64,000 bases of DNA from an uncultured Chitinophagales bacterium (GTDB lineage Bacteria > Bacteroidota > Ignavibacteria > UBA10030 > F1-140-MAGs086): the NCBI GenBank assembly GCA_964358705.1, contig CAYHPL010000004.1, forward strand, positions 62,750-126,749, written 5' to 3'. Below, piece after piece: positions 4,581 to 35,167 of the stretch; the first letter of the stretch is position 1; each line of letters begins with the position of its first letter. Made by a program: the position numbers and the translations under genes. The notes beneath the pieces were generated by a model. That model was not told the origin of the DNA and searched no databases. It saw only the letters and a list, made by a program, of their open reading frames with translations.

Positions 4581-4620
4581 AAAAAGGCGATGCAGAATTT
4601 CTTCCGTATCGCCTTTCGTG
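4578..4620. terminator. Hairpin terminator between convergent genes (member of a repeated terminator element)
   Basis: aaaaaaa-GGCGATGC-agaatttcttcc-GTATCGCC-tttcgtg. The A-run on one side and T-rich run on the other allow termination in both directions. Confidence 0.65.
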
Positions 4621-4672
4621 CGTTCTTCCAATGGAAATTAAGTGCTACGTATTTCAAGAATGCGTAGCACTT

Positions 4673-4711: not shown

Positions 4712-7423
4712 CTATTTCATCAGCATCATTTTCTTTGTTGCAGAAAAATTTCCTGCGGTGAGTTTGTAGATGTACACACCGCTCGAAAGTTTCTTTGCAT
4801 CGAATACTATTTCGTGATACCCTGCTGCTTTGAATTCATTTGAAATGAGATTTATTTCTTTTCCTAAAATACTAACAATTTTCAATGTTACATTTGCATC
4901 CACCGGCAACGCAAATTTAATTGTCGTTGTCGGATTGAATGGATTTGGATAGTTTTGCTCAAGGGCAAACTCTTTGGGGAGTTCGCGCAGATTTCCTGTG
5001 TGGATTTTCTGCTCATTATTTTCATACACTGTAAATGAAACAGAATTTGATGGTTGCGATAAGTTTCCTGCAACATCAATCGTTTTTACGTGGTAGTACA
5101 CCGTTGTTGGCTCCCCGGGTGCATCGAGATACTCATTATCATCTATGAAATCATTGGTTGATGTGATGCCAATGTATGTCCAGGGACCAGTATCTCGCTT
5201 CTTATATATTTTATATTTCTGCGTTGGCAGATCTGATTCAAGTGAAACATCCCACGTAATGCGCGGATGATTGATGAGTTCAGGATCTTCAACATTGCTT
5301 CGAGCATTTTTCGGCGCTTCCGGCGGAGGATTAATACGATACAGACCTTTCGCTGTCGCGGCATAAATAATTGAGTCATTGCTGTTATTTCTTCGCAAAT
5401 CATAAATCGGCGTTGGAAGATTTCCCGTTACATCTGTCCAGGTTGTACACGCATCTGCAGTTTTAAATATTTTTCTCCCATTGGAAGATATTACCCACAA
5501 ATAATCTCCTGATGTCGGATAACTCGGATGCATAAGAATTTTTGTTACTGTATCACTACGTGTGAAAACGGGATTCCAATTACTGCCGGAATTTTCGGAT
5601 TTCCATAAACAAATAGAATCTGATACCAATGAAATATCCGAACTTGCATATACTATAGATGGAACTCTGATATTTAAAGCCACATCATAGACGGTGCGGT
5701 TTTCATCATAGTTCATCGGTGAATTTGGTAATGTCCATTGCGCCCAATAATTTCCTGAATTTGTCGTTTTATACAGACCAAATCCATACGAGCCGACATA
5801 ATATTTCTCTGTTTGTTGTGTTGCTCCCGATGTATCAAGCGCTATGGCTAAGAGTGTTGGTCTATACGTCGAATTAACTATTACTTCTTCCCAACTATTT
5901 GTTGCTCCATAATTTCCATTCGCAAAAAAATTGCTAGTACTACCAGCATTTCCGTTATTACCAACCATATACAACTTATTCGTAGCAACAGGGTCAACTA
6001 CTGCATCAAAAAAGCAAACATTCCACGCAGAAGAAGCAGCACCTGTATAAGAACTTTGCCACGTTTTTCCCGAGTCAGTGGAACGGATAAATTTCGCTGT
6101 GTCCCCCATTTTTCCCGCCGCAAATGCATACTGCGAGTTCGATGAATGCAGCAACATAAATTCTCCGTCAAAATTTTTATCATTCGTGCCACTTGCATCT
6201 ACACTCTGCCATACTGTATTCGGATTGCGCCAGACTGCCGGATAGTTTTCAGTCGTTGCCATTTGTAAATTTCCTCTGACACTTGCAGATGAAATTCCTA
6301 ATTTTTTAATATTGATATTGATGTCTGCCCAATCTGTTCCGGTGTTCGTGGTTTTGTACAGACTTCTGTACGACCCTGCATATACACGCGCTGAACTTTG
6401 CGGACTGACTGCGACAACATTGATGGAATCATCATACATTCCGCTGTCATACTTTGTAAAATTACTGCTACCCGATGGTTTGATGCAGAGTCCTTTATTG
6501 GTCGCAACATACACATTACTCCCGCTTGTTTTGATGTCGTAAATATGCACATTGGAAACAGGGAGTGAAACGATTGTCCACGAACTGCCATCCGTTGAGT
6601 GCAGTAATTTACTGTACACTGATTCTTTTGCCGCATACAAATGAATGTCTTCCTCAAACTGATACACACCGATTGCCGTTATTGTATCATTTTTCAATCC
6701 GAGCAAACACCAATGCGAACCCGCATCGGGAGAGTAAAATACACCGCCAGTGGTATCACTGGGTCCAAATACATTCATTGTTTTATTATGTCCCTCGATG
6801 GGATGAGAGCCCGCCGCCCACACTTTCTGATTATTACCAGAAAGTGTTGTGATTGCATTTACATCTGTTTTTACATCGCCAAAAAAGTAAGTAACGTGAC
6901 TCCAAGAATAACCAATGTCGTAACTTCTGTACATTGAGTAGTATAAAGAATCTTTTTCGTACCCTGCAAACATCAGTGCAGAATTCGCTTTCGCGATTTC
7001 GATGGATGTATGGTAAAGCGCGGAATTACTGTTTTTATCCGTCCAGGCACTTCCGCCGTCCGTGCTGAGCTTCAATTTTCCGCTCACTGATGCTAAAACT
7101 ATATTTGTATTCGTAAAAGCGCATACGACATTTACCGGCGAGGTAATCGTAGAACTACCTATTTGCGTCCACGATGCGCCGCTGTTCACCGATTTCAGCA
7201 AGCGCGTAGATTCAATTGCGTATAATGTATCCGCAGAACTTCCCGACGTTCTGTTCCCGACCGAAATATCTGTAACGGAATCTGCTCGCCACGGACCGTT
7301 CATATCTGTCCAGTTCCATGTTTGCGCAGAGACCTGCGAAGTAAATTGCGCCATTACGGCACAACAAAGTAATAATATTACCAATGCATGCGATGCATTG
7401 ATTTTTACTGTTATAGAATGCAT
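4712..7423 (-). CDS. Secreted BNR/Asp-box tandem beta-propeller protein (sortilin/VPS10- or GH74/Ycf48-like) + Fn3-like domain + T9SS CTD (903 aa)
   Basis: Signal peptide present. At least 9 Asp-boxes (SVNSGASWT, STDGGSAWT, SPDAGSHWC, STDGSSWT, TTNTGTDWA, STDSGKTWQ, TTNSGNYWA, SENSGSNWN, TADACTTWT). The CTD reads LEQNYPNPFNPTTTIKF...GVYIYKL...KKMMLMK. It is a paralogue of 15173..17878. Confidence 0.8.
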   Translation of the reverse strand: MHSITVKINASHALVILLLCCAVMAQFTSQVSAQTWNWTDMNGPWRADSVTDISVGNRTSGSSADTLYAIESTRLLKSVNSGASWTQIGSSTITSPVNVVCAFTNTNIVLASVSGKLKLSTDGGSAWTDKNSNSALYHTSIEIAKANSALMFAGYEKDSLYYSMYRSYDIGYSWSHVTYFFGDVKTDVNAITTLSGNNQKVWAAGSHPIEGHNKTMNVFGPSDTTGGVFYSPDAGSHWCLLGLKNDTITAIGVYQFEEDIHLYAAKESVYSKLLHSTDGSSWTIVSLPVSNVHIYDIKTSGSNVYVATNKGLCIKPSGSSNFTKYDSGMYDDSINVVAVSPQSSARVYAGSYRSLYKTTNTGTDWADININIKKLGISSASVRGNLQMATTENYPAVWRNPNTVWQSVDASGTNDKNFDGEFMLLHSSNSQYAFAAGKMGDTAKFIRSTDSGKTWQSSYTGAASSAWNVCFFDAVVDPVATNKLYMVGNNGNAGSTSNFFANGNYGATNSWEEVIVNSTYRPTLLAIALDTSGATQQTEKYYVGSYGFGLYKTTNSGNYWAQWTLPNSPMNYDENRTVYDVALNIRVPSIVYASSDISLVSDSICLWKSENSGSNWNPVFTRSDTVTKILMHPSYPTSGDYLWVISSNGRKIFKTADACTTWTDVTGNLPTPIYDLRRNNSNDSIIYAATAKGLYRINPPPEAPKNARSNVEDPELINHPRITWDVSLESDLPTQKYKIYKKRDTGPWTYIGITSTNDFIDDNEYLDAPGEPTTVYYHVKTIDVAGNLSQPSNSVSFTVYENNEQKIHTGNLRELPKEFALEQNYPNPFNPTTTIKFALPVDANVTLKIVSILGKEINLISNEFKAAGYHEIVFDAKKLSSGVYIYKLTAGNFSATKKMMLMK

Positions 7424-7722: not shown

Positions 7723-9252
7723 TTATTTCATCAAAATCATTTTCCTCGTCAATATGCTTGTTTTGTTTTTATCATTTGTTACGGAAAGTCGGTAAAAATA
7801 TATTCCGCTTGCCAGTCCTTCCGCATTCCATTCCGCAGTATATTTTCCTGCTTCCTTTTTTTCACTGACTAATGTTGCGACTTCTTTCCCGAAAATATCA
7901 TACACTTTTAATGAAACATTCCCAAGAGCCAACAGCGAAAAGCCAACAGCCGTGTGCGGATTAAACGGATTGGGATAATTTTGTTCAAGCGTAATACTTT
8001 GCGGGCTGTGTTCATCCTCTGTAACCGGAGTCGTTATAAATGTTCCCCGTCTCCCATAGAGTTGCCACGTCTGTAATGTGGAGTCAAATTCTGACCATGT
8101 AATAAACGCATAAGAGGATGTTATAATAGCTTTTGCCAGCACTCCTTCTTCACTAATGTACATCGGCGTACACCAGTCCCCTCCCGCATTGTAACTGATA
8201 CCTGCCTGTACACCATTGAAAAACATACTATCTACTGTCCAGGCACATATTATTTTTTCTCCATAATAAAATGAATTTGCAGCAAAACCAACCGGATGTT
8301 CTGTCAGCAGGTATTCTTCCTCCCATGATTCTCCGCCTGTCGTGCTGTACCGTCCGAGTATGCTGCATCCTGCTAATCCCATACATCCGTATTTGGTATC
8401 CTGCCATGTAATATTTAAATTTGTATTCCCATCTGATGATATAGATTGATCGGCAGTATTGTGATCGGAGTCTATTGTAGAAATGATGATGGAATCGTGC
8501 CACGTGTCCCCAAGGTCGGTACTTTTCTGATAGAACATCATAAACTCCAATACTCCTGAAATACCCCATCGCTTGCTCAGGTGCAGTGCGTTTTGCGTCA
8601 GCGTATGGGTAGGAAATTCTGCTGTTGTTAGTTCAGAAGAAAAACTCCACGACACCCCTGCATTTGTAGTTCGCAAGAGTTGCATTCTGTTGCAATGCAA
8701 AGCATAAACGGAAAATATAATTGTATCTCCCTTAATAATCGGATACTCTCTCGCACTGATTGTGTCTGTTGTAACAGAAGGCAAGGTAAAAGTTTCTCCC
8801 TTATCAGAACTTTTTTGCATCCAGAGCGCGTTTCCATGTACAACGCTGTCATCCATCTCTCTGAAAAAAACAAAGAGCATTTCTTTGTTTGCTAAAATAA
8901 ATTCATCATACGGCAAACGGTTATTTGAACCAAGCAGTAAATTTTTAGTATGAGAAAACGTTCTTCCTGTATTTGTGCTTTTTATGTAGGGAATCGTTGG
9001 TGTATCACGCCAGACATGCCAGATACAATAAATGATATTTTCATCACTGCTATCCAATGCAAGCCGCGCAGAAAAGTTATTGTAATGCGGATAATCGGCG
9101 GAGAGATGTATTTTAGGTTCCCATGCAATGCCGCACATCGTATCAATTTGTGCGTATGTCGTAAAATTCAGGAGGAGACAGAGAGAGGCAAGCAGAGCCA
9201 GTGTAGCCGTGCTGCAAGTGAACAACGAAGAAATGTAACGAGTACTGAGCAT
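7723..9252 (-). CDS. Secreted BNR/Asp-box (sialidase-fold-like) protein with T9SS CTD (~509 aa)
   Basis: Asp-boxes STNTGRTFS, SSDKGETFT, TTNAGVSWS, STDLGDTWH, STTGGESWE. CTD reads LEQNYPNPFNPHTAVGF...GIYFYRL...RKMILMK. I placed the start at ATG 9252 (MLSTRYISSLFTC), matching the paralogue 18155..19666. The ORF track extends to a TTG at 9267. Confidence 0.8.
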   Translation of the reverse strand: MLSTRYISSLFTCSTATLALLASLCLLLNFTTYAQIDTMCGIAWEPKIHLSADYPHYNNFSARLALDSSDENIIYCIWHVWRDTPTIPYIKSTNTGRTFSHTKNLLLGSNNRLPYDEFILANKEMLFVFFREMDDSVVHGNALWMQKSSDKGETFTLPSVTTDTISAREYPIIKGDTIIFSVYALHCNRMQLLRTTNAGVSWSFSSELTTAEFPTHTLTQNALHLSKRWGISGVLEFMMFYQKSTDLGDTWHDSIIISTIDSDHNTADQSISSDGNTNLNITWQDTKYGCMGLAGCSILGRYSTTGGESWEEEYLLTEHPVGFAANSFYYGEKIICAWTVDSMFFNGVQAGISYNAGGDWCTPMYISEEGVLAKAIITSSYAFITWSEFDSTLQTWQLYGRRGTFITTPVTEDEHSPQSITLEQNYPNPFNPHTAVGFSLLALGNVSLKVYDIFGKEVATLVSEKKEAGKYTAEWNAEGLASGIYFYRLSVTNDKNKTSILTRKMILMK

Positions 9253-9458
9253 AATGTTACCAATCAATTATTACAAAAATTTGATATTAATGATTACATC
9301 ACTACTGAACTAACATTCTCTACATTCATCAGGTTATGATGTAATCGTAAAAAAACTGGGCGTAATATACAATTCAATACAATTCAATACAATTCAATAC
9401 AATTCAATACAAGAAAATTTTGAAAATATTTTTTGAAAACGGACTCATTTGTCTTTAA
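9214..9458 (-). promoter_or_regulatory. Conserved upstream block, copy 1 (first 13 codons + 5' leader + tandem repeat + distal TTGAAAA repeats)
   Basis: Nearly identical to 19628..19872, with only a handful of mismatches by eye over the ~150 nt from taatgattacatcac to tattttttgaaaa. The flanking coding sequences are strongly diverged. It contains an inverted repeat ATTACATCA/TGATGTAAT in the leader. Confidence 0.7.
9367..9412 (-). repeat. Perfect 10-bp tandem repeat, 4 full units plus partial units (plus strand AATTCAATAC; gene-sense GTATTGAATT)
   Basis: Read directly: atac aattcaatac x4 aa. It lies about 115-160 nt upstream of ATG 9252. Confidence 0.95.
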
Positions 9459-9459
9459 C

Positions 9460-9495
9460 AAAAAAAAGGCGACACAGAATTACTTCCGTATCGCC
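9460..9495 (-). terminator. Rho-independent terminator after the 1642-aa gene (repeated element)
   Basis: Minus strand: GGCGATAC-ggaagtaattct-GTGTCGCC-TTTTTTTT. Confidence 0.75.
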
Positions 9496-9528
9496 TTTCG
9501 TGCGTTCCCCCAAATGAAGAGTATTTTT

Positions 9529-14457: not shown

Positions 14458-14475
14458 AAGTGTACCTAAGATAGA

Positions 14476-14501
14476 TGTGAGTAAATAATATGTGAGTAAA
14501 A
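14476..14501 (-). repeat. Direct repeat 2 x 11 bp (ATGTGAGTAAA), 15-bp period, just upstream of the 1642-aa gene start
   Basis: Read directly. It shares the core (G)TGAGTAA with 15021..15059. Confidence 0.8.
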
Positions 14502-14518
14502 AATTATTTTGTAAAACG

Positions 14519-14538
14519 GATAACGCCGTCGTTATCCT
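14519..14538 (-). terminator. Hairpin after the receiver-only gene
   Basis: GGATAACG-ccgt-CGTTATCC is a perfect 8-bp stem. The T-tract is weak on the minus strand (GTTTTAC) and stronger on the plus strand (TGTTTTCTGTTTTTT). Confidence 0.5.
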
Positions 14539-14550
14539 GTTTTCTGTTTT

Positions 14551-14919
14551 TTAAAAAATTGTTTGTGTTCGTTCTGCTTTTGCTATCGTTAATTTCAATT
14601 CCGCAATGTTTATCGGTTTCAATAAATAATCTAACGGGTTATATTTTATCGCCTTCACCGCATATTGCGAGTGTGCTGTAACAAACACAACTTTAAAATC
14701 AATGCGCTCAAACGACTGCAGCAAATCAAATCCTGTCTGAAACGGCATCTCGATATCTAAAAAAACTATATCGGGATTATGTGTTTCAATGGCATGTTTA
14801 CCGGTTGTTGCAGAATCTGCTAATGCAACTATTTCTACATTTGTGCAATATTTTTGCAGCATTGTTTTCAGCACTTGCTGACCTTTATGTTCATCGTCAA
14901 TAATTACGGCGCGAAGCAT
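14551..14919 (-). CDS. Stand-alone response-regulator receiver domain (LytTR-family receiver lacking the LytTR DNA-binding domain)
   Basis: The 122 aa align along their whole length with the receiver half of 19948..20694 (IIDDE, FLDIEMP, VVFVTAH..YA.KAIK...LDYLLKP). The protein stops right after the linker and no LytTR segment follows. Confidence 0.8.
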   Translation of the reverse strand: MLRAVIIDDEHKGQQVLKTMLQKYCTNVEIVALADSATTGKHAIETHNPDIVFLDIEMPFQTGFDLLQSFERIDFKVVFVTAHSQYAVKAIKYNPLDYLLKPINIAELKLTIAKAERTQTIF

Positions 14920-15020
14920 TCTTTAAAAATTTCTAATCGGAAATTAAATCTGTATAGTAAAAAATTCTATGGTAAAATTACTGTTCTCTTTGTTCTTCGC
15001 AAATGAAAAAAAAAGGAAAT

Positions 15021-15059
15021 TGAGTAAGCGGCAGGTTTTGTGAGTAAGCGGCGGGATTT
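15021..15059 (-). repeat. Direct repeat 2 x 19 bp (TGAGTAAGCGGC(A/G)GG(T/A)TTT), 20-bp period, upstream of the receiver-only gene
   Basis: Read directly. It lies about 100-140 nt upstream of ATG 14919. Confidence 0.8.
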
Positions 15060-15102
15060 ATTTAGTATTGAACAGAGAGAAAATGTGGGTTTTGACAAAA
15101 AT

Positions 15103-15137
15103 AAAAAAAAGCGACACAGAATTACTTCCGTATCGCC
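15103..15137 (-). terminator. Rho-independent terminator after the 901-aa gene (repeated element)
   Basis: Minus strand: GGCGATAC-ggaagtaattct-GTGTCGC-TTTTTTTT. The sequence gcgacacagaattacttccgtatcgcctttcgtgc is identical to 9469..9503. Confidence 0.75.
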
Positions 15138-15172
15138 TTTCGTGCAAATGTAAATGCTGGATAATTAAATTG

Positions 15173-17878
15173 TTATTTCATCAAGAGCATCTTCTTTGTT
15201 GCCGAATAATTTCCTGCGGTGAGTTTGTAGATGTACACACCGCTCGAAAGTTTTTTGGCGTCGAACGGGACTTCATAGTAGCCCGCTTCTTTTACGCCAT
15301 TCACTAATGTTGCAATTTCTTTTCCGTTGACATCAAAAATTCTCAAAGAAACAGTTGCATCAACCGGCAATGCAAATTTAATTGTTGTTGCCGGGTTGAA
15401 TGGATTCGGATAGTTTTGTGAGAGTGCAAACTCTTTGGGGAGGTCGCGTAGATTGCCGGTACGTATTTTCTGTTCGCTGATTCCATTATTGCACATAAAT
15501 GAAATTGTGTTGGATTGACCTGATACATTGCTGCCGTTGTCTATCACTTTTACATAATAATATATTCTTACTGGATCTTCGTCCGTGAGAAGTTCTTCTG
15601 AAATATCTGTATAGTTTGTTGTTGATACGGTCGCTTTTTCTATCCACGTTCCAATTGTTCCTCGTTTCTTGAACACTTTGTATTTCAGAGAAGGAAGGTC
15701 TGTTTCAGGCGATGCATCCCATCTGAAACTTGGATGCACAGACGAACCGGGATTATCAGTATCAAGCTGAAGGTTTTTAGGTGCTTCAGGTTTTGGATTT
15801 ATTTTATAAACGCCCTTTGGTGTGCTTACATAAATAAGAGTATCATTAAGTGGGTCGCGAACAAGTTGGTATATTGGAGTTGGAATCGTATCGGTAACAT
15901 CACTCCACGTACTTCCGCCATCAGCAGTTTTGAAAATTTTTCTTCCGTTCGCCGCTATTACCCAAAGATATTTTGATGAATCCGGATACGTCGGGTGCAT
16001 CAATATTTGTTTCACTGTATCCGAACGTGATATCATATTACTCCAGCTTGAACCAGAGTTGGTTGATTTCCAAAAACAGGTTGAATCTGTAGAAGAATAA
16101 CGTTCTCCTCCTGCATAAACTACCGATGGAACTTTAGGATTCAATGCAACCGCATACACTGTTCTGTCTTCATGCGTTGTACCAAGATCCCACTGAGTCC
16201 AATCTGTTCCGTTATTTGTGGTTTTCCATAAACCTTTTGCATCCACTCCTGCATAAATTTTCTGTGAATTATTATTTACAGCATTTGTTGAATCTATCGC
16301 AAGGGAAAAAATATCTTTGTTTTCACCCGGCGGTACTCGTGTGAATGAAGACCACGAAACACCGTCATCCGTGGATTGATAAAGATTATTATGGTCATAC
16401 ACTCTCCCTCCGCAAAGTATTCTCTGTGAATTTTTCGGGTCAAGTGCAAATGTATTGAACCATGAACTGTAATTCAAAGATATTTTATTATTCCAGTCTT
16501 TACCGTTGTTGCTTTCATATATCACGCCGTCATTGCCATTGCTGACACCACATAAAAATCTGTGCGTTCCGTTTTTATGCCAGAAGGTATTGTTTACTGT
16601 TGTCGTGATATCTTCTTCAATTTCATAGTTTGTCCATGTACTGTTTTTATATTGACTTACAGAATTGATTAAAGCGTTACTGCTTACTACCGAATCACGA
16701 TATACTGAAAGCGTTGTACTCCCAGCCATTCCAATCCCTCGGCTTATATCTTCCCAGACTTGCGACCCAATATTCTGAAAAACTCCGGTAGTTGTGCCGA
16801 CAAAAAATGCATCATCACTTCCTTCCGGCTGTATCAATGCTATGGATTTTGTATTCAGTTCATATAATCCTGAATGAACTCCTTCCCGTGCGAAAGATGT
16901 ACAGGCTAAGTTGTCACTGTAATACACGCCATCATTCGTTGCTACATATACTTCTCCGGTGGTTTTATCTACTGTAATGCCATAAATTTTATCTACTGCG
17001 GACGGTAAACTATATGCGTTTTGCCAGCTTTCACCATCGTTTGTTGAATATTTTACTCCTGCCTCACCGCCACTCACGGGCCTGTCTCCATATCCTGCAT
17101 ACACTACTGAATCTCCATACGTCGGGTCATAGTAATACGCCATTGCGGTTACGTTTCTTCCGCCAAGACCACTCTCGCTCCAGTTCACTCCGCCATTTGT
17201 GGAAAACCACACGCCGCGAAATTTTGGAGGTGGCGGGTCTTCTACTCCTGCTTTTAAATCTCCGTCTTCATATTGACTGCCTCCCAACCATACAAGATTT
17301 GGTTTTGTTGGATGAAACACAAGAGACGTAACTGATGTGCGGTTGACAAAGTATGAATCCGCTGCAAATGAATTTCCAAAATCATTACTTTTCCAGAGAG
17401 TCGAAACTCCCGGAATTGAATCTATACCAAGCCACACGCGGTTTGCATCCGATTCATGCGGTGCAAATACAAGACTGCGGGGAACAAGAGTTGAATAATT
17501 TTCAATTTTTACACCCCAACTTGTTCCGGAATTTGTACTACTCCAAATCTCGTGTCCATTATTAGTTACAACATACTTCGGACTATCAATATTACACGCA
17601 ACCACACGGGGGTTTGTAATAGTATTGATATGGTTCCATTGTTCGCTGGCGAAGTCATATTTTATTAAAGTGGTGCCGGAATCGGCGGCATACAAAAACA
17701 GTGTATTGGTACTATCATACGCTGTGGCAATCTGAAGAACAGTATTTGCTCTCCAGGGTCCGTTCAAACTGCTCGTAATTTGCTGAGCATTGGCAACATT
17801 CGCAAACGTCAATAATAGCATTGATGCGAAAGCGCTTATAATACTGAAGCATACGCTTCTCATAGATAATTTTTTCAT
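15173..17878 (-). CDS. Secreted BNR/Asp-box tandem beta-propeller protein + Fn3-like + T9SS CTD (901 aa), paralogue of 4712..7423
   Basis: Asp-boxes TNSGTSWG, STNGGVNWS, STNDGESWQ, STDDGVSWS, TTNNGTDWT, STNSGSSWS, TADGGSTWS. The C-terminal half is collinear with the 903-aa protein (LWVIAANGRKIFKTADGGSTWSDVTDTIPTPIYQL). The CTD reads LSQNYPNPFNPATTIKF...KKMLLMK. Confidence 0.8.
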   Translation of the reverse strand: MKKLSMRSVCFSIISAFASMLLLTFANVANAQQITSSLNGPWRANTVLQIATAYDSTNTLFLYAADSGTTLIKYDFASEQWNHINTITNPRVVACNIDSPKYVVTNNGHEIWSSTNSGTSWGVKIENYSTLVPRSLVFAPHESDANRVWLGIDSIPGVSTLWKSNDFGNSFAADSYFVNRTSVTSLVFHPTKPNLVWLGGSQYEDGDLKAGVEDPPPPKFRGVWFSTNGGVNWSESGLGGRNVTAMAYYYDPTYGDSVVYAGYGDRPVSGGEAGVKYSTNDGESWQNAYSLPSAVDKIYGITVDKTTGEVYVATNDGVYYSDNLACTSFAREGVHSGLYELNTKSIALIQPEGSDDAFFVGTTTGVFQNIGSQVWEDISRGIGMAGSTTLSVYRDSVVSSNALINSVSQYKNSTWTNYEIEEDITTTVNNTFWHKNGTHRFLCGVSNGNDGVIYESNNGKDWNNKISLNYSSWFNTFALDPKNSQRILCGGRVYDHNNLYQSTDDGVSWSSFTRVPPGENKDIFSLAIDSTNAVNNNSQKIYAGVDAKGLWKTTNNGTDWTQWDLGTTHEDRTVYAVALNPKVPSVVYAGGERYSSTDSTCFWKSTNSGSSWSNMISRSDTVKQILMHPTYPDSSKYLWVIAANGRKIFKTADGGSTWSDVTDTIPTPIYQLVRDPLNDTLIYVSTPKGVYKINPKPEAPKNLQLDTDNPGSSVHPSFRWDASPETDLPSLKYKVFKKRGTIGTWIEKATVSTTNYTDISEELLTDEDPVRIYYYVKVIDNGSNVSGQSNTISFMCNNGISEQKIRTGNLRDLPKEFALSQNYPNPFNPATTIKFALPVDATVSLRIFDVNGKEIATLVNGVKEAGYYEVPFDAKKLSSGVYIYKLTAGNYSATKKMLLMK

Positions 17879-18118
17879 AATAATAATTTGAAAAAGTTAA
17901 TAAATATTGTTAATTAACGGTTCCATTGTGCCAAAGGCATACCTTTCGGTATATTTGAAGCGGATTTTTGGCGGAAGCATAACAATGCCTCTGTCTCAAA
18001 CACGGTGTACAGGCGCCTTTCCTTCCGGATATTGCAACCCTGTGAAAAGAGGGGCGCCATCCACCGTTAAAAAACTACACGAAACCAAATTCGTTTTTTT
18101 CACTTCAAAACTTGTTTC

Positions 18119-18138
18119 GACAGACAGGAATGTCTGAC
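18119..18138 (-). promoter_or_regulatory. Conserved 3' hairpin motif, copy 2 (after 503-aa gene)
   Basis: GACAGAC-aggaat-GTCTGAC followed by CTACC. Confidence 0.5.
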
Positions 18139-18154
18139 CTACCAGTAAAAATTC

Positions 18155-19666
18155 TTATTTCATCAAGAGCATTTTCTGCGTGAGTATTGTTTGCTTCCCA
18201 TCATTGGTTACTGAAGTAAGACGGTAAAAATACATTCCACTCGCAAATTCTTCCGCGTTCCAATCCACGTTGTATTTACCTGCTTCATATTGTTTGTTAT
18301 TGATGAGTATTGCAACTTCTTTTCCGAACATATCGAATATTTTTATTGTAATTTTGCTGACTGCTGATTGCTTAAAGCTGATTGCTGTTTGCGGATTAAA
18401 CGGATTCGGATAATTTTGTTGTAATACAATATTCGATGGAATATTCTCTATTGGCTCTTTTACGGAGGTGCGCACTATTTCTCCACGTACATAATACATC
18501 TTCAAAGTGATTGCGTGCGAGAACACCACGTGGATTGCATTAGGTGAAATTGCTATTTTCGCATCTCCTGTTTTGGGAACTCCCGTATGGTGAACCGGAC
18601 AATATGTTTTTCCTCCGTCAAAACTTACACGTGCATAGACTTCGTACTCTACATCATTCCCGCCGCTCCAGGTAGAGGCAACTATATTTCCCTGTATGGC
18701 TACATCAGAGGTAATTCCATTTTGAATTTCGGTTAAAAGTTGGTCATCGTACCATTGCTCACCTCCTGAATCACTTCGTCTGCTCACGATACCGCACCCT
18801 AACGAACTGAAACATCCTCCGAATTTTGTATCGCGCCATGTTGCAATAATATTATTTCCTTCTGCCGCTACTGTTGCAATGGATGAACCAGCACCGTCGT
18901 GAGAGGAAAGGAACATTTTTTTTGTCCACGAAAACCCTAAATCCGTACTTTTCCAATATAAGATTTCCGGTGAAAGTAATGGAATACCGGTAGCGCTCAT
19001 TACAACGTGTAGTGCACCAGAGCCAAGTGCACATACCGGAACAAAACCAAGAATAGTATCCGTAGAAAAATTCCATGAATTTCCACCAGTGGTTGATGAT
19101 GCGATAACTGGAAGTATGACATAACCTGGAATAGGACGATAGTTAATACCCAATGCAATTGTATCATCATTAATAGTTACAGGGTTTTTTGATAACTCCT
19201 CTGGAAAAATTTGATTCGGTAAATTCCATGAAAGTCCTTTGTTGCTACTCTTTATAAACTGGATATAATCTTTTCCAGTACTATCATTAACAAATTGATA
19301 AAACAAATACAGCGATTGTGATGTTGGGATAATTTGATGATGAGATGCATGACTTCTTGGAGTATTCCATAGTTCCATTACTTCACTCCATTGCTCACCT
19401 TCCGTTGTAGAACGCATATATGGCAATTTTGTATATCCACTGCTCCAAGTTAAATGTACAATATTTCCTTCTGTTGCAATTTGAGGTAAACCTCTGTCAT
19501 TCATTAGTACGACCGGCTCGTGCCAGATAATGCCGCAGGCGGTATCCTGTGCATACGTATATGAGACACAAAAGGGAATATTTAAAAGGAGTGTGAGGGA
19601 GGCAAATCGCGCTATTTTTGCAATGGCGCAAGTGAACAACGAAGAAATGTAACGAGTACTGAGCAT
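18155..19666 (-). CDS. Secreted BNR/Asp-box protein with T9SS CTD (503 aa), paralogue of 7723..9252
   Basis: The first 13 residues are identical to the paralogue (MLSTRYISSLFTC). Asp-boxes STTEGEQWS, SSNKGLSWN, STTGGNSWN, STDLGFSWT, SDSGGEQWY. The CTD reads LQQNYPNPFNPQTAISF...GMYFYRL...QKMLLMK. Confidence 0.8.
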   Translation of the reverse strand: MLSTRYISSLFTCAIAKIARFASLTLLLNIPFCVSYTYAQDTACGIIWHEPVVLMNDRGLPQIATEGNIVHLTWSSGYTKLPYMRSTTEGEQWSEVMELWNTPRSHASHHQIIPTSQSLYLFYQFVNDSTGKDYIQFIKSSNKGLSWNLPNQIFPEELSKNPVTINDDTIALGINYRPIPGYVILPVIASSTTGGNSWNFSTDTILGFVPVCALGSGALHVVMSATGIPLLSPEILYWKSTDLGFSWTKKMFLSSHDGAGSSIATVAAEGNNIIATWRDTKFGGCFSSLGCGIVSRRSDSGGEQWYDDQLLTEIQNGITSDVAIQGNIVASTWSGGNDVEYEVYARVSFDGGKTYCPVHHTGVPKTGDAKIAISPNAIHVVFSHAITLKMYYVRGEIVRTSVKEPIENIPSNIVLQQNYPNPFNPQTAISFKQSAVSKITIKIFDMFGKEVAILINNKQYEAGKYNVDWNAEEFASGMYFYRLTSVTNDGKQTILTQKMLLMK

Positions 19667-19872
19667 AATATTATAATTAAATACTATAAAAATTAGATAC
19701 TAATGATTACATCACCACTGAATAAACATTCTCTACATTCATCAGGTTATGATGTTATCGTAAAAAAACTGGGCATAATATACAATTCAATACAATTCAA
19801 TACAATTCAATACAATTCAATACAAGAAAAGATTGAAAATATTTTTTGAAAAAAGATTAAGTTGTCTTTTGA
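19628..19872 (-). promoter_or_regulatory. Conserved upstream block, copy 2
   Basis: See 9214..9458. The 39 nt gcaagtgaacaacgaagaaatgtaacgagtactgagcat, which include the start codon, are identical in both copies. Confidence 0.7.
19778..19825 (-). repeat. Second copy of the same 10-bp x4 tandem repeat
   Basis: tacaattcaa x4 + tacaa, with the same unit and copy number as 9367..9412. It lies about 112-160 nt upstream of ATG 19666 and about 120 nt downstream of the LytTR regulator stop. Confidence 0.95.
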
Positions 19873-19898
19873 AAAAAATATTATACTCAGTGAAACAA

Positions 19899-19918
19899 GA
19901 CATACAAGAATATCTGTC
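19899..19918 (-). promoter_or_regulatory. Conserved 3' hairpin motif, degenerate copy 3 (after LytTR regulator gene)
   Basis: GACATAC-aagaat-ATCTGTC followed by CGACC. A near-palindrome ACCAATGTACATCGGT follows at 19921..19936. Confidence 0.4.
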
Positions 19919-19947
19919 CGACCAATGTACATCGGTACTTCTTTCTT

Positions 19948-20694
19948 TTACACAAGCAGCAATCGCTTCATCAGTTCCTCTTTGTGCCTGCGCGAAACTT
20001 CAACAGTGGAATTATCGGTGAGTATAATTGTTCCGCCATCGCCTTTTAGGTATTGCTTAATATGCAGCGCATTGACAAGATGCGATTGATGAATACGGAT
20101 AAAATTGTACTCCGTGAGAAGTTGCTCAAAATCTTTCAGCGTCTTTGCCGATGTGTGTTTTTCTCCGTTCGCAAGAAAAATTGTTGTGTAATTGCTTTCC
20201 GATTCGCAGCGCAGAATATCATTGATTTGCACAAACACAACGCCTATACGTGTCGGCAATCCGATTTTACTGTGCGCGCTTTTCATCGTCTGCAAAAAAC
20301 TTTCTACTGCAACGGGTGACTTTCCTGCTTTTATTTTTTCTTCTGCACGTGCTACGGCATCTTTTAATTCTTTGAGATTCACCGGCTTCAGCAAATAATC
20401 CAATGCGGACATTTTTATTGCCTGTATTGCGTAGTTCTCGTGCGCGGTTACAAATATGACCTCGAAATCAATTTTTCCGAATGATTGCAGTAATTCCAAC
20501 CCGGATTCTTTCGGCATTTCCACATCAAGAAAAACCAAATCGGGAGAACACTCCGCAATTGCTTTTCTTCCCGCATCTGCAGATTCTGCCATTGCAACTA
20601 TTTCCACTGTTCCGCTGCAATACTTGTGTAGCATTTGCTGCAAAACACTGCGTCCCCTTTTTTCATCATCTATTATTATTGTTCGTAGCATCAT
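19948..20694 (-). CDS. LytR/AlgR (LytTR) family response regulator
   Basis: Receiver domain (IIIDDE, FLDVEMP, LLKP) followed by a LytTR domain (IGVVFVQINDILRCESESNYTTIFLANGEKHTSAKTLKDFEQLL..FIRIHQSHLVN). The start lies 9 nt downstream of the kinase gene. Confidence 0.9.
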   Translation of the reverse strand: MMLRTIIIDDEKRGRSVLQQMLHKYCSGTVEIVAMAESADAGRKAIAECSPDLVFLDVEMPKESGLELLQSFGKIDFEVIFVTAHENYAIQAIKMSALDYLLKPVNLKELKDAVARAEEKIKAGKSPVAVESFLQTMKSAHSKIGLPTRIGVVFVQINDILRCESESNYTTIFLANGEKHTSAKTLKDFEQLLTEYNFIRIHQSHLVNALHIKQYLKGDGGTIILTDNSTVEVSRRHKEELMKRLLLV

Positions 20695-20703
20695 AGTATT
20701 TTT

Positions 20704-23700
20704 TTATGAATAGTAAAGCGGCAGCACAATTTCCACCCGCGTTCCTGTTGCGTTTCCTTCAGCATCGTGCAAATCAAGAATGCGCACGGAAGAATGTTTT
20801 GCGCCCGATGCATTCAGTTTTTCGATACGGTCAAATGTTACGCGCATTCCTTTCGATTCAAAATCCTGTTTCAACGGATGTTTGATGTGTTGCGATTTTT
20901 CTCTGCCAATGCCGTTATCTTCAATGACGCAAAGTAAATTTTCATTCTGCTGCGCAACAGTTATTTGAAGATTTCTTTCGCCATCTTTGTGCCGCAATCC
21001 GTGACCAATTGCATTTTCCGCAAAGGGCTGCAATAACATTGGCGGAAGAAAACATTCTCCGGTATTCAGTGTTTCATCAACGGAAATGGTGTAGGTAAAT
21101 TCATTTTCAAAGCGCAGCGATTCAAGTTGAAGGTACAGCGTCAGCACTTCAATCTCGCGGGCAAGCGTAATGAGCGGCACTTCGGCATTTTCAAAAATAA
21201 ATCTGATGAGCCGCGCAAATTTGGAAAGATAGTCGCATGCGGCTTCGGTGTTATCGCTGAGAATGCTTTCCTGAATTGCATTGAGCGAATTAAAAATAAA
21301 ATGCGGATTCATCTGCGCACGTAAAGCGCGGGATTCCAATTCGACCAGTTGTTGCTGCAATGTTGCTTTCCTGCGCTCTTCTGCCTGAATTTTCTTCTCT
21401 CGCTTTTTTACAATAAATGTAATGCCGCCAGCAATGAGCAGAAAGGTGAGAATCTGAAACCACCACGTCTCCCAAATATGCGGAGGAATAATTATTTTCA
21501 ACACTGCTCCCTGCGAATTCCACTCTCCCGTATTACTCGCGGCAATAACCCGAAACGTATATTCGCCTGCGGGAATATTTGTATAGTATGCTTTGCGCCG
21601 CGTTTCTGCTTCGTTCCATTGTGTTTCAAATCCTTCGAGCATATAGCGGAAGCGGATTTTTTCCGACGCAAAAAAAGAAAGCGCGGTGTATTCAATTTCA
21701 AATTTCTTTTTTCCGGGAGAAAGCGCAAGCGGTTCATTGACAAGCAACGTATCTTCATTGGAAATCAGCCGCTCAAAAATCACCTGCGGAGGCATACTGT
21801 AATTATTTATATCATTCGGATTCAGCAGTACAAATCCTTTCACTGTCGGAAACACCAACATTCCGTCGCGCGTCATTACTGATGTTGGCGTTGAGCCTCC
21901 GTTGCACTCCACACTTTTCATTCCGTCATCCATTCCGAAAGAAACGGACGTAATGGAAGAAATTTTTCCATCCGCGCAATCATTGAGTTCTTGCCTGCTT
22001 GCGCGGAAGATTCCGTGATTGCTACTCATCCAGAAATAGCCGTTGCTGTCTGCAAGAATAGAAAAGACGACGTTATCGTACAATCCGTGTTTTTTATTGA
22101 TGGAAATAAATTTTCCATTTTTGTAGCGAATGAGTCCCGCATTGTATGTCCCAATCCACATTGTAGAATCGTCTTCAAAATGAAATGCAAATACTTCGTT
22201 ATCAGGCATTCCTTCTTTGATACCGTAAAAAGTTATCGTTGTATCTTCAATACGATTGATGCCCGCCTGTGTTCCTATCCACAAAATGCCATTGTTATCT
22301 TCCGTAATTACGCGCACAAAACTGTTTGTCGTTTCATTATAATGCGGAAGACGGTTGAAAGAAATTTCCTTCCCGCGAATAATTACAACGCCCGCGCCGT
22401 ACGAACCGCACCAGATAATGTTATTTTTATCGCTATACACGGAACGAAACCGTGCTATTAATTTATTATCGTGCGGGTCATGCAAATTGTTGTAATAGTG
22501 AAAACGCGGCGTGGAAGAAATTGAACTGCTCATCAGTTGCGATAATCCGCTGATGCTGCCAAACCACATATTTCCTTCCGCATCTTCTTCAATTGCACGC
22601 ACCTGATTTTCCAGCAATCCGTTTGCGGTGGAATAATGCTGTGTAAATTTTCCGTTTTCAAACACATCTACTCCGCTGTTGCGCAACCCAATCCACAAAC
22701 GCTGCTTGCTGTCTTCAAACACACAATGCACATAATCGCTCGAGAGACCGTTCTCTTCCGCATACACAGAAATATTTTTGTCTTTCAATCTGCACAAACC
22801 GCCGCCGCGTGTACCAAGCCAGAGATTTCCTTCTCTGTCCTCGCAAATAGAAATTATGCGATTACTTTTTAAGCCGTCTTGTAAATTGAATTGAGAGAGC
22901 GTCCCATTCGTATAGCGAAATAATCCGTCCCCTTCTGTCCCTATCCAGAGATTGCCTGATTTATCTTTTATCACTTCACGTATCGGCGAAATAAAATCTT
23001 TCTTTGCGAAAGAAAACAAATTTTCTTTGCCGTCTTTTATAAAATAAAGCCCGTCTCCTTTTCCTCCCCATATTGTTCCCTGCGCATCCTCGCATATCAC
23101 GGAAAGAATTTCGCTTGTTGTCTGCGGGATTTTTGTAACAGAAAAATCTTTATTGTAGTATTTAAAATTTCCTGTGCCAAACCAAATTCTATTGTGAGAA
23201 TCTTCAAAAATGGTGCGCACATTATTAAACTGCGAAGTTTCTTCGGTAGGAATTACTATTGCTTTTTCGTTTTGAAAACGCGCGATTCCCATGTGCATAA
23301 ATCCGAGCCACAAATTATTTTTACTATCTACAAAAACTTCTACTACTTCATTCGTAGGCAAACCGTTTTCTTTTGTATAAAAATAAAATTTACCTTGATA
23401 ATATTTTCCCAATCCGCCGCGCAACATTGCAAACCATAAATTGCCGTTGCCGTCTTCAGCAAGCGACATAATGCTGTTATCAGACATTCGCGGAACTGTT
23501 GCAGAACTGAACGTGGTAAATTCAACGCCATCAAACCGAATAAGCCCGACATCTGTTCCAAGCCAGATGTAACCGTCCTTTGTTTGTTTAATTGCGTGAA
23601 TTGCGAATGCAGAAAGTCCGCGCGATTCATCCCACATATCAAGCCCGTACTGAGAAATATTTTTTGTCGGGTTCAATGCAAAAAGAGTATTGTGCAGACA

Positions 23701-23757
23701 AGTACTGCACAACACAACGGCGGAGAGAAACAATATTTTCCGTAGCACAACTATCAT
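20704..23757 (-). CDS. Sensor histidine kinase: periplasmic Reg_prop beta-propeller repeats + Y_Y_Y domain, TM, LytS/YehU-type His_kinase + HATPase_c
   Basis: Repeated GN(L/I)W(I/L/F)GT..GL motifs. Y_Y_Y-like FEIEYTALSFF..RFRYMLEGFETQWNE..IPAGEYTFRV. TM segment WWFQILTFLLIAGGITFIV. LytS-type box NPHFIFNSLNAI. ATPase box VIEDNGIG. Confidence 0.9.
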   Translation of the reverse strand: MIVVLRKILFLSAVVLCSTCLHNTLFALNPTKNISQYGLDMWDESRGLSAFAIHAIKQTKDGYIWLGTDVGLIRFDGVEFTTFSSATVPRMSDNSIMSLAEDGNGNLWFAMLRGGLGKYYQGKFYFYTKENGLPTNEVVEVFVDSKNNLWLGFMHMGIARFQNEKAIVIPTEETSQFNNVRTIFEDSHNRIWFGTGNFKYYNKDFSVTKIPQTTSEILSVICEDAQGTIWGGKGDGLYFIKDGKENLFSFAKKDFISPIREVIKDKSGNLWIGTEGDGLFRYTNGTLSQFNLQDGLKSNRIISICEDREGNLWLGTRGGGLCRLKDKNISVYAEENGLSSDYVHCVFEDSKQRLWIGLRNSGVDVFENGKFTQHYSTANGLLENQVRAIEEDAEGNMWFGSISGLSQLMSSSISSTPRFHYYNNLHDPHDNKLIARFRSVYSDKNNIIWCGSYGAGVVIIRGKEISFNRLPHYNETTNSFVRVITEDNNGILWIGTQAGINRIEDTTITFYGIKEGMPDNEVFAFHFEDDSTMWIGTYNAGLIRYKNGKFISINKKHGLYDNVVFSILADSNGYFWMSSNHGIFRASRQELNDCADGKISSITSVSFGMDDGMKSVECNGGSTPTSVMTRDGMLVFPTVKGFVLLNPNDINNYSMPPQVIFERLISNEDTLLVNEPLALSPGKKKFEIEYTALSFFASEKIRFRYMLEGFETQWNEAETRRKAYYTNIPAGEYTFRVIAASNTGEWNSQGAVLKIIIPPHIWETWWFQILTFLLIAGGITFIVKKREKKIQAEERRKATLQQQLVELESRALRAQMNPHFIFNSLNAIQESILSDNTEAACDYLSKFARLIRFIFENAEVPLITLAREIEVLTLYLQLESLRFENEFTYTISVDETLNTGECFLPPMLLQPFAENAIGHGLRHKDGERNLQITVAQQNENLLCVIEDNGIGREKSQHIKHPLKQDFESKGMRVTFDRIEKLNASGAKHSSVRILDLHDAEGNATGTRVEIVLPLYYS

Positions 23758-24293: not shown

Positions 24294-24923
24294 TTATTTT
24301 TGCATTACTTTCATCATTGCTTCTGCGCGCGAGCGCACGTGGAGTTTTTCATAAATTTTGTGCACATGCGTACGCACTGTTTCGATGCTGATAAATAGTT
24401 TTTCGGCAATTTCTTTATAGCGAAATCCATTGGTGAGATAGCCGAGTATTTCCATTTCCCGTTTGGACAATTGCTCCGTAACGTCCGAAGATGCAACGCG
24501 GAATTGTTGAAAAACTGTAACAACTTTTCTGGCAATTTCTGCGGACATTGGCGCGCCTCCATTAATGACTTCCTGAATTGCTTCGAGAAGTTTTTCCGGT
24601 TTGGTACGCTTTACTAAATATCCCGTTGCGCCTGCGGCAAGCGCCTGAAAAATGCTTTCATCATTCTCATAGACCGTGAGCATAATGATGTGCGCAGGAG
24701 TATTTCCATCTTTCAGATTGCGCACGCAATCTATACCGGACATTCCCGGCAAATGAATATCCATCAATATTACGTTGGGAGGCTGCTGCCGTAAGGGAGA
24801 AATTGCTTCTTCGGCGGTTCGATAGGCACCCAGACAACGAAATCCGCGCGATGAATTTAACAGCATTGTTAATCCTTCACGAATCGTGGTATCATCTTCA
24901 ACTATGGCAACGGAAACAGGCAT
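24294..24923 (-). CDS. NarL/FixJ (LuxR-type HTH) family response regulator
   Basis: Receiver domain (VAIVEDD, MDIHLPGMSG, YLVK) plus a GerE/LuxR HTH (LSKREMEILGYLTNGFRYKEIAEKLFISIETVRTHVHKIYEKLHV). Confidence 0.9.
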   Translation of the reverse strand: MPVSVAIVEDDTTIREGLTMLLNSSRGFRCLGAYRTAEEAISPLRQQPPNVILMDIHLPGMSGIDCVRNLKDGNTPAHIIMLTVYENDESIFQALAAGATGYLVKRTKPEKLLEAIQEVINGGAPMSAEIARKVVTVFQQFRVASSDVTEQLSKREMEILGYLTNGFRYKEIAEKLFISIETVRTHVHKIYEKLHVRSRAEAMMKVMQK

Positions 24924-28000: not shown

Positions 28001-28080
28001 TTGAGAGCAAATGAAGCAGATGCAGAAAAGAGCATTGCAGAAAAAAATACAGTACAACGAATGAAGAAAAGAGTTTTCAT
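25009..28080 (-). CDS. Sensor histidine kinase: Reg_prop repeats + Y_Y_Y domain, TM, HisKA_3 (NarX/DesK-type) + HATPase_c
   Basis: The periplasmic architecture matches 20704..23757 (GNLWFGTRGAGIF, GSMWFGTRGGGLYQL; LEIQYTALTYRN..FKYKLEGYDEEW..LPYGDYVFRL). TM segment WWFRSFFAFIFLSGVYGGV. HisKA_3 box ERSRISQDMHDEVGASLSQI. ATPase box VVKDNGIGF. Confidence 0.9.
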   Translation of the reverse strand: MKTLFFIRCTVFFSAMLFSASASFALNPTKSLYKYGIDKWDPPRGFTTYSINAIFQTRDNYLWLATDEGLMRFDGVHFTIYDKTNTPGMRHNDITCLAEDNKGNLWFGTRGAGIFKRTPQGIITVINDSNGLASNKIYTLLFEQENVLYAGTSNGINKLSFDSRDYFSIQAYDKRNVPPDKINLAHRIISDKKGSLWFTGENIYRMSIASEKIDTLHAFSTIRPIALDSVGVLWAGSKEFLYKYEQGKISLFPLASSMKVSYIIALYTDSHGELWAGTEGSGLYRISPDGTLDSLHPSDNLMIDNVACFYEDREGSMWFGTRGGGLYQLKDNSIETFSKEDGLSNDLVYSIFEDSRGEIWIGTARGGINRLFVQREKNGTINLQPKKIMNIVYDERNGLSCPNVRAVCEGSDGSIFVGTYNGFNRFYHEQWEQFVIDTLGFQDIRSVFTDRKGNTWVGSLAAGVGKFEKGNLIRDFFGRKSEILSNVRAICEDSSGNLWVGTQFALHCVTDTGYIKFTEKDGLQGNIVIGIYADAENKIWVSTWGFGIQQYHPNADSNKKFTSITRANGMLDDIISAMAEDDFGNFWFGSFKGIFRVIKEELYAVADGKRARLTNVSYSMQEGMKDFGCNAATQPIVCKTRNGQIWFSTAAGVAIVNPKRLLKEYSPPEIVIEQCIADKDTFSLCNSILTNSGLKQLEIQYTALTYRNIHKIQFKYKLEGYDEEWIDAGTVRKAIYAKLPYGDYVFRLRACNGEGVWNNAGISFPVSIPPLYWETWWFRSFFAFIFLSGVYGGVRFISLRKLQAKLRKLEMQQSLEKERSRISQDMHDEVGASLSQISMLSELTERNLGDVNIVEKNIKRITATAQNVTESLDEIVWFLNPKHDSLQSLVAFVREYLAEYLESSSVNFTFDFPENIPSLNLPPDVRHNVFLVLKESAHNVVEHAQAEKVHITLSVHNNSIKAVVKDNGIGFSKEQISPFSDGLTNMQKRIERINGIYSIASDNNGTIVQFRVHCDGATRIATL

Positions 28081-28221: not shown

Positions 28222-28273
28222 TTTCGTGCTGTTGCTTTTTTCCTCTTGTTACAGAGAAAAAAAATCGAGGATT

Positions 28274-30862: not shown

Positions 30863-30873
30863 TCGTTTCTATT

Positions 30874-35100: not shown

Positions 35101-35167
35101 AGTAATTGTTCTTTCTTTGAATTGTGATTAAATAATGTAAGTAAATAAAAATTGAGATGGCATTGTT

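Follow-up and report, generated by a model that had tools for sequence, protein, structure and literature searches.

A near-identical 5' block in front of diverged type IX secretion cargo cassettes is probably kept uniform by gene conversion

The window analyzed here, a 64-kb stretch (64,000 nucleotides [nt]) of contig CAYHPL010000004.1 from an uncultured Bacteroidota bacterium, contains two copies of a two-gene cassette, each preceded by a near-identical block of about 240 bp. All of these features lie on the reverse strand. In cassette B, gene B1 (18155..19666) encodes a protein of 503 amino acids (aa) whose sole Pfam hit is the type IX secretion C-terminal domain (Por_Secre_tail), and gene B2 (15173..17878) encodes a 901-aa sortilin/Vps10-like protein that also carries this domain in Pfam. 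Cassette A consists of their paralogs, A1 (7723..9252; 509 aa, 35% identical to B1) and A2 (4712..7423; 903 aa, 37% identical to B2). The C-terminal domain is present in gene 1 of each cassette as well as in the sortilin/Vps10-like gene 2, and weak BNR_2 hits were obtained for A1 and other members of the gene 1 family. Block copy B (19869..19628) comprises an upstream element, a tandem repeat, a putative core promoter, a leader of about 104 nt, and the first 13 codons of B1. Block copy A (9456..9214) places the same module before A1.

The two blocks were aligned on the coding strand with MAFFT, and identities were counted on that alignment. The near-identity over about 240 bp that the original prediction had described was borne out, with 222 of 243 columns identical (91%) and 21 positions differing. 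Identity was 20/20 in TTTTCAAAAAATATTTTCAA, 46/46 in the tandem repeat (4.6 × 10 nt), 21/22 from the end of the repeat to the leader, 51/55 in the first part of the leader, 27/36 in the last 36 nt before the ATG, and 39/39 in the first 13 codons, where an uninterrupted identical run had been reported. Over the stretch of about 150 nt for which fewer than 10 mismatches had been estimated by eye, seven were counted; the mismatches lie mostly at the 5' edge of the block and in the 36 nt before the ATG. A repeat search recovered the partner copy 10.4 kb away (9262-9465 against 19675-19878 at 90% identity, plus 9163-9268 against 19577-19682). A 20-mer repeat probe occurred 6 times against 0.02 expected, thereby indicating that the pair did not arise by chance. 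The sliding-window comparison that had been proposed as a check was run over both whole cassettes, and identity reached 0.9 to 1.0 only from about -200 to +39. It was 0.35 to 0.55 in the gene bodies, as low as between unrelated AT-rich sequences, and intermediate (0.7 to 0.9) at the 3' ends encoding the secretion domain. The amino acid identity downstream of the block had been put at roughly half; this was overstated, since the values are the 35% and 37% given above and only 25% in the mature part of gene 1.

Three further copies of the block were found on other contigs. Copy C, detected by BLAST of the block against all fetched loci, is on L017, a contig from the European Nucleotide Archive (ENA) sample that also yielded a contig identical to the window. 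It precedes P0006, a 503-aa paralog (38% identical to B1 and 46% to A1); the next gene encodes a sortilin-like protein with 40% identity to A2, so that a third cassette is present. The first 13 codons of B1 (19628..19666; copy A, 9214-9252), the start of the signal peptide, encode MLSTRYISSLFTC, and both A1 and P0006 start in the same way; the whole 42-aa signal peptide is common to P0006 and B1. When the 45-aa N terminus was searched exhaustively against 1.84 billion representatives, only P0006 was found, indicating that this long signal peptide is not common to other protein families. A second lineage (genome 2), present in two Joint Genome Institute (JGI) metagenomes, carries copies D and E. 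Copy D precedes P0009 (L019 and L020), an A1 ortholog with 61% identity overall and 62% in the mature part. Copy E, from the same two samples as D, precedes P0130 (L024 and L025), a B-like paralog with 42% identity in the mature part. P0009 and P0130 both start with MKLLHYISSPCSS. The database names of the relatives are Bacteroidota or Ignavibacteriae.

No further copy was found by BLAST or with a covariance model in the 64-kb window or in the 174 kb of fetched loci. The block is absent upstream of P0002, the protein most similar to B1 (57% identical), whose gene also has other neighbors. The 20-nt repeat probe gave 11 single chance hits in unrelated taxa among species-representative genome contigs, a collection in which the source genome is not included. 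The three-motif pattern CAGTTTTTT..WACATCAT..GTGATGTA gave three hits, all in one unrelated coding region, among metagenome contigs of a collection without L019 to L025.

The cause of the near-identity was examined by comparing pairs of copies within and between the two genomes, with block identity measured over -165..+39 and protein identity over the mature part. Copies A and B, which lie in the same genome, share 0.93 of the block and 39/39 of the first 39 nt, and their mature proteins are 0.25 identical. For the pairs assigned to one genome from shared samples, the corresponding values were 0.92, 37/39, and 0.27 for B-C; 0.87, 37/39, and 0.39 for A-C; and 0.87, 38/39, and 0.28 for D-E. Between genomes, the values were 0.60 (block), 19/39 (first 39 nt), and 0.62 (mature protein) for the orthologous pair A-D and 0.65, 20/39, and 0.42 for the B-like pair B-E. 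All between-genome pairs fell at 0.60 to 0.65 in the block and 19 to 20 of 39 in the first codons. The grouping by mature proteins is thus opposite to the grouping by block. Along the A-D pair, nucleotide identity was 0.5 to 0.77 in the block and 0.8 to 0.97 at +82..+200 of the coding sequence, which is the normal pattern of conservation.

The ends of the homogeneous tract differ from pair to pair: -210..+39 for A-B, -216..+125 for B-C, -255..+25 for A-C, and -124..+25 for D-E. The B-C tract takes in the whole signal peptide. The A-C tract takes in the upstream terminator, its similarity beginning inside that hairpin at about -255, because members of one terminator family directly precede both copies; in front of block A this is the terminator hairpin of the preceding gene (9464..9499, reverse strand). 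In codons 1 to 13, third positions were identical at 13 of 13, whereas in the gene cores they agree in about 45% of the identical residues. Thus, the hallmarks of concerted evolution that were looked for were all present: paralogs more alike than orthologs inside the tract with the flanks showing the opposite, sharp boundaries specific to each pair, and synonymous sites as conserved as the rest.

With block identity at 87 to 93% among paralogs and 60 to 65% between genomes, and with the adjacent orthologous coding DNA behaving in the opposite way, these results argue for gene conversion rather than selection on the whole block. We conclude, with a probability of about 0.78, that the near-identity reflects concerted evolution by within-genome gene conversion among paralogs and that a small family of two-gene operons shares the block as its 5' expression module. 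On this interpretation, the block would unite promoter, leader, and signal peptide start and would be common to at least three cassettes per genome, each pairing a protein of about 505 aa from a BNR-related family with a sortilin-like protein of about 900 aa, both presumably exported by the type IX secretion system. The homologous island would be kept uniform by ectopic conversion of the RecA type, which could not spread past the flanks, where homology is lost. The sharp edges of the block are explained by the same process, because conversion renews an existing homology island and cannot reach far beyond it. All cassettes would then be driven by one promoter and leader and are likely to be coregulated.

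Comparable signs were seen at the 3' ends of the genes. Third-position identity at the secretion-domain ends is intermediate (22/29 to 23/31), and synonymous-site identity is also raised at the 3' ends of A2 and B2 (4741-5004 against 15202-15465). Elsewhere in the window, otherwise unrelated cargo genes of the SBBP, FG-GAP, and Kelch types have 80 to 92% DNA identity where their 3' ends encode the type IX secretion C-terminal domain (28271-28551, 30871-31151, and 35165-35445). These observations suggest that conversion acts on 3' ends too. The gene family of the cassettes behaves likewise in a third lineage (L013), where paralogous cassettes with 39% protein identity have a 164-nt upstream block (9281-9444 and 14286-14449) and a 270-nt 3' end (10930-11199 and 15833-16102) at 98% identity, the upstream block being unrelated in sequence to that of the window. 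One of these copies has upstream of it (8827-9079 of L013) tandem repeats of 42 nt and 21 nt and also a fragment that looks like the 3' terminus of a gene for a secretion-domain protein. A family of intrinsic-terminator hairpins of nearly identical sequence (AAAGGCGA..TCGCCTTT followed by a T-run) also stands after different type IX secretion cargo genes, at 4579-4636, 9461-9518, and 15103-15160 of the window and at about 865-905 of L017.

The comparison of the five copies from the two genomes was used as a footprint of the module. Conserved between genomes are TTCAA..CTTG, a variable microsatellite of TTG pentamers, TATATT-N5-CAGTTTTTT, and the leader arms ACATCAT, CTGA / TC(A/G)G, and GTGATGTA. 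Read 5' to 3' on the reverse strand, the module would begin with an A/T-rich upstream element containing a distal direct repeat, TTTTCAA-N6-TTTTCAA (19833..19852; copy A, 9420-9439). This repeat is 20/20 identical in copies A, B, and C; by our reading of the alignment, genome 2 keeps only TTCAA..CTTG of it, at a variable distance from TATATT. A microsatellite of alternating TTGTA and TTGAA pentamers, which was detected by Tandem Repeats Finder as 4.6 units of TGTATTGAAT (19780..19825; copy A, 9367-9412), would then cover the -35 region and the DNA upstream. It is present as TTGTATTGAA in 4.6, 4.6, and 3.6 units in A, B, and C, respectively, as four units of TTGTA in E, and in degenerate form in D, and is a labile microsatellite. 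Next would come a -10-like TATATT (19782..19777; copy A, 9369..9364), 5 nt, and a CA start with its A at 19770 (copy A, 9357), so that the putative core occupies 19770..19782. A leader of about 100 nt beginning AGUUUUUU and containing a 57-nt three-tier hairpin would follow, and the module would end with an A/U-rich, poorly conserved stretch before the AUG, no Shine-Dalgarno sequence, and the first 13 signal peptide codons.

None of the five copies departs from TATATT-N5-CAGTTTTTT; the TATATT is a putative -10 element with the CA as putative transcription start, giving predicted leaders of 97 to 105 nt. Candidate -35 sequences are weak: TTGTAT in genome 1, TTGGAT in D, and none in E. This weakness accounts for the consensus promoter scan not reporting TATATT-N5-CA. 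Inspection by eye for sigma-54, extracytoplasmic function (ECF)-type, and TAnnTTTG motifs gave no convincing conserved match. The DNA before the start codons is A/T-rich, and no Shine-Dalgarno motif was seen there. A passage in PMC6847099 describes Bacteroidota translation initiation without a Shine-Dalgarno sequence as tuned by mRNA structure, and the A/U-rich stretch before the AUG fits such initiation. An upstream open reading frame in the leader of genome 1 (MNVENVSSVVM, then a stop) was rejected because genome 2 has no ATG there and its reading frame differs.

Which regulator might act on the module is suggested by the neighbors of copy B. A two-component system assigned by Pfam lies directly upstream of this copy on the same strand (19948..23757) and consists of a Reg_prop/Y_Y_Y/LytS-type histidine kinase (20704-23757) and a LytTR response regulator (19948-20694); the pair ends 80 nt upstream of the block. 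The block could be the operator and promoter of this regulator and its propeller-sensor kinase, all cassettes forming one regulon, a view that is compatible with conversion. The regulator would bind either at the 10-nt repeats, which are in phase, or at the TTTTCAA repeats, which are spaced by 13 and 23 nt. The LytTR proteins AgrA, ComE, and YpdB bind direct repeats upstream of weak -35 elements, and here the repeat array spans about -13 to -58 relative to the putative start. The module resembles LytTR-activated promoters (agr P2/P3, comCDE, and yjiY) in its direct repeats upstream of a weak -35 and in the LytTR gene beside one copy. However, the repeats are contiguous 5- or 10-nt units and not 9- to 10-nt sites separated by about 21 bp, copy D has only a degenerate array, and no similar repeat is found upstream of the kinase operon. 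The adjacency is also confined to copy B and is not kept at the other four copies: the 5' neighbors are a 1,642-aa secreted-protein gene at A, a peptidase S49 gene at C, and a divergent BNR-type gene at E, and no LytTR gene occurs within the 14.5 kb of L024 around E. The neighboring LytTR system is a plausible candidate regulator, but the evidence for it is weak, and we regard this role as unlikely.

The leader itself contains the inverted repeat that had been noticed in the original prediction (copy A, 9287-9301 / 9337-9351; copy B, 19705-19714 / 19750-19759, with one mismatch in B). The suggestion that it forms a stem in the 5' untranslated region (UTR) gained support, since it is part of a longer, 57-nt hairpin at +12..+68 of the putative transcript (19703..19759, reverse strand; copy A, 9290-9346). 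From the putative start, the three-tier hairpin folds in 5 of 5 copies at -16 to -23 kcal/mol, with z-scores of -2.6 to -6.6 relative to shuffled sequences. In the hairpin alignment, 96% of cells are paired, compared with 14 to 56% when the partners are slid. Three basal pairs are changed on both sides between genomes (G-C/C-G, A-U/U-A, and U-A/G.U), so that pairing is kept, and four pairs in all change on both sides; the apical stems differ in sequence and are formed in both lineages. Several of the G.U pairs would be C.A mismatches on the other strand, which favors an RNA of the sense strand. Only the window taken from the putative start scores as significant; folds of 131 to 132 nt that start inside the 5' arm and run into the coding sequence were no better than shuffled sequences (z-scores of +0.5 and +0.8). 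Rfam gave no hit at the gathering threshold in the whole window and none at an E value of ≤1 in 19600-19900, and the hairpin covariance model detected no further instance in 174 kb. As far as two lineages go, the leader hairpin thus appears to show the generic marks of a structured RNA, namely, folding better than shuffled sequence and compensatory pairs. It probably stabilizes the mRNA or binds a regulator.

A bolder proposal takes TATATT-N5-CAGUUUUUU and the three-tier hairpin together as a cis-regulatory leader RNA not described before and specific to these type IX secretion cargo cassettes; this RNA would be recognized by an RNA-binding protein of its own, by a small RNA, or by the neighboring sensor system. 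In this proposal, (TTGTA)n would be a tunable operator and conversion would spread a regulatory "plug"; if it were true, conversion would put new paralogs under one switch. We consider so specific a scheme distinctly unlikely.

The labile array could also act as a phase-variable promoter, slipped-strand changes in unit number switching or tuning single cassettes as in contingency loci. A perfect 4.6-unit array overlapping the -35 region, the difference in unit number among the paralogous copies, and the different type of repeat in the two genomes are in favor of this idea. In contrast, independent assemblies of the same loci have the same repeat (the window and L018; L024 and L025, by alignment; L019 and L020, by eye from shared upstream sequence), and copy D has no perfect repeat. 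Moreover, a 10-nt unit preserves the helical phase, so that no on/off change of spacing would result. Phase variation is accordingly given a small chance.

The leading idea of the original prediction, that purifying selection has held the entire block nearly unchanged, as an ancient cis-regulatory or RNA element, ever since the cassettes were duplicated, would account for 91% identity over 243 nt beside genes whose products are 25 to 37% identical, and some submotifs and the hairpin are indeed conserved between genomes. The comparison between genomes speaks against it, because the block is at 60 to 65% and the 13 codons are at 19 to 20 of 39 where the adjacent orthologous coding DNA is at 80 to 97%. 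The unit and number of the tandem repeat also vary between copies, and no Rfam family matches. The near-identity over 240 bp is therefore no evidence of strong selection on the whole block. Of the two causes originally proposed, recent conversion limited to the control region agrees with the results and strong selection on the full 240 bp does not. The absence of the block from orthologous loci in relatives had been named as an observation that would count against the prediction; the block is recognizable there, in line with the prediction, but strongly diverged, which is not. An ancient, selectively maintained block is very improbable. Finally, a mobile or selfish repeat resembling a miniature inverted-repeat transposable element (MITE), or an assembly artifact, might be suspected from the several near-identical copies and the repeated terminator hairpin adjoining A and C, but it can be dismissed almost entirely, because every copy stands in register with the same gene family and includes the start codon and first 13 codons, no other copy was found in the loci searched, the block has no terminal inverted repeats, and an artifact is disfavored by a separate public ENA contig (L018) that is 100% identical to window 10507-21401 and by the 21 positions at which the block copies differ.

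Several observations weigh against the interpretation of the block as a converted expression module with a functional leader. Mismatches within the block cluster weakly (P of about 0.02 to 0.08), which is compatible with graded selection or with overlapping conversion tracts of different ages. Copies C, D, and E are on separate metagenomic contigs, and the assignment of C to the genome of the window and of D and E to one genome follows from their shared samples. The central argument for conversion stands without the assignment of C and E, because it needs only A and B, which are on one contig, compared with D. On the promoter side, the -35 is weak, or absent in copy E, and TATATT fits the Bacteroidota -7 consensus TAnnTTTG at only 4 of 6 specified positions. 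As for the hairpin, the stem of copy B carries an uncompensated A.A mismatch, the block occurs in only two independent lineages, so that the covariation reflects only one divergence event, and the sequences on which the structure was tested are those from which it was derived.

The window as a whole is an island in which cargo genes of the type IX secretion system (SdrD_B, SBBP, FG-GAP, Kelch, and endonuclease I types) are accompanied by several two-component systems. Among these, the sensor at 20704-23757 has a paralog at 25009-28080; each is about 1,020 aa long, and both have Reg_prop propellers and a Y_Y_Y domain, yet they feed different outputs, the former a LytS-type kinase with a LytTR regulator and the latter an HisKA_3 kinase with a GerE/LuxR regulator (24294-24923). 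A 122-aa stand-alone receiver-domain protein is encoded at 14551-14919, between cassette B and the 1,642-aa cargo gene. The spacers between gene 1 and gene 2, 270 to 300 nt in length, are otherwise unrelated between cassettes A and B, but CTTCAAATATA and the palindrome GTTAATTAACA occur in both at different spacings, within about 70 nt 5' of position 7423 (A2) and within about 85 nt 5' of position 17878 (B2). They may serve gene 2 as internal promoter or operator elements. In addition, a 15-nt tandem repeat at 14475-14504, two units of ATGTGAGTAAAAAAT on the forward strand (TTTTTTACTCACAT on the coding strand), lies upstream of the 1,642-aa SdrD_B cargo gene, and that 14-mer recurs in another organism, upstream of P0002 (L012, about 215-235). 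TTTTTTACTCACAT, which is seen upstream of other secreted-protein genes, showed no enrichment in the window (19 matches against 20 expected).

Stem-loops in the 5' UTR stabilize bacterial mRNAs, the ompA leader being an example. The leader described here would likewise be long, with a stable hairpin near its putative 5' end, in an mRNA for an abundant protein of the secreted or envelope type. It differs in that the start is putative, with the hairpin about 11 nt from it, and that the hairpin could equally be a site for a protein or a small RNA. Classic cases of concerted evolution in bacteria are rRNA operons, tuf genes, and pilin or opa genes, in which coding sequence is homogenized. Here, in contrast, the tract is essentially a noncoding control region with 13 codons and, to a weaker degree, the gene ends that encode the secretion domain. 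A passage in PMC2720389 defines concerted evolution by homogeneous stretches and by paralogs more alike than orthologs, and this defining signature of ectopic conversion is found at the present loci, together with mosaic tract ends and identical synonymous sites.

The closest known analogue is the erp family of Borrelia burgdorferi with its erp operator or "upstream homology box," in which many paralogous mono- and bicistronic surface-protein operons have conserved promoter/operator, leader, and N-terminal sequences and divergent mature proteins, and in which the shared 5' DNA allows coexpression of all copies (PMC9112904). The erp loci are carried by prophage plasmids (cp32), their leader is 14 nt long, and their binding sites for the proteins BpaB, BpuR, and EbfC are defined, whereas the present cassettes are chromosomal, encode type IX secreted proteins, and have a leader of about 100 nt with a hairpin. 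Here, homogenization is demonstrated by the contrast of paralogs with orthologs.

The process itself is ordinary concerted evolution; what is new is its setting, in type IX secretion cargo cassettes of an uncultured Bacteroidota group, and a candidate leader hairpin outside Rfam. For comparative genomics, the locus illustrates a trap, since noncoding DNA that seems better conserved than its genes may be a conversion tract, and only comparison with orthologs reveals this. The leader hairpin and TATATT-N5-CA are testable candidates for the regulation of type IX secretion cargo in this uncultured group. Within one gene family, the 5' control region and the 3' end encoding the secretion signal are both homogenized, whereas the cores of the proteins diversify. 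Altogether, the results suggest that this groundwater Bacteroidota lineage keeps several diverged pairs of secreted proteins under one promoter and leader, as Borrelia does with its erp genes.

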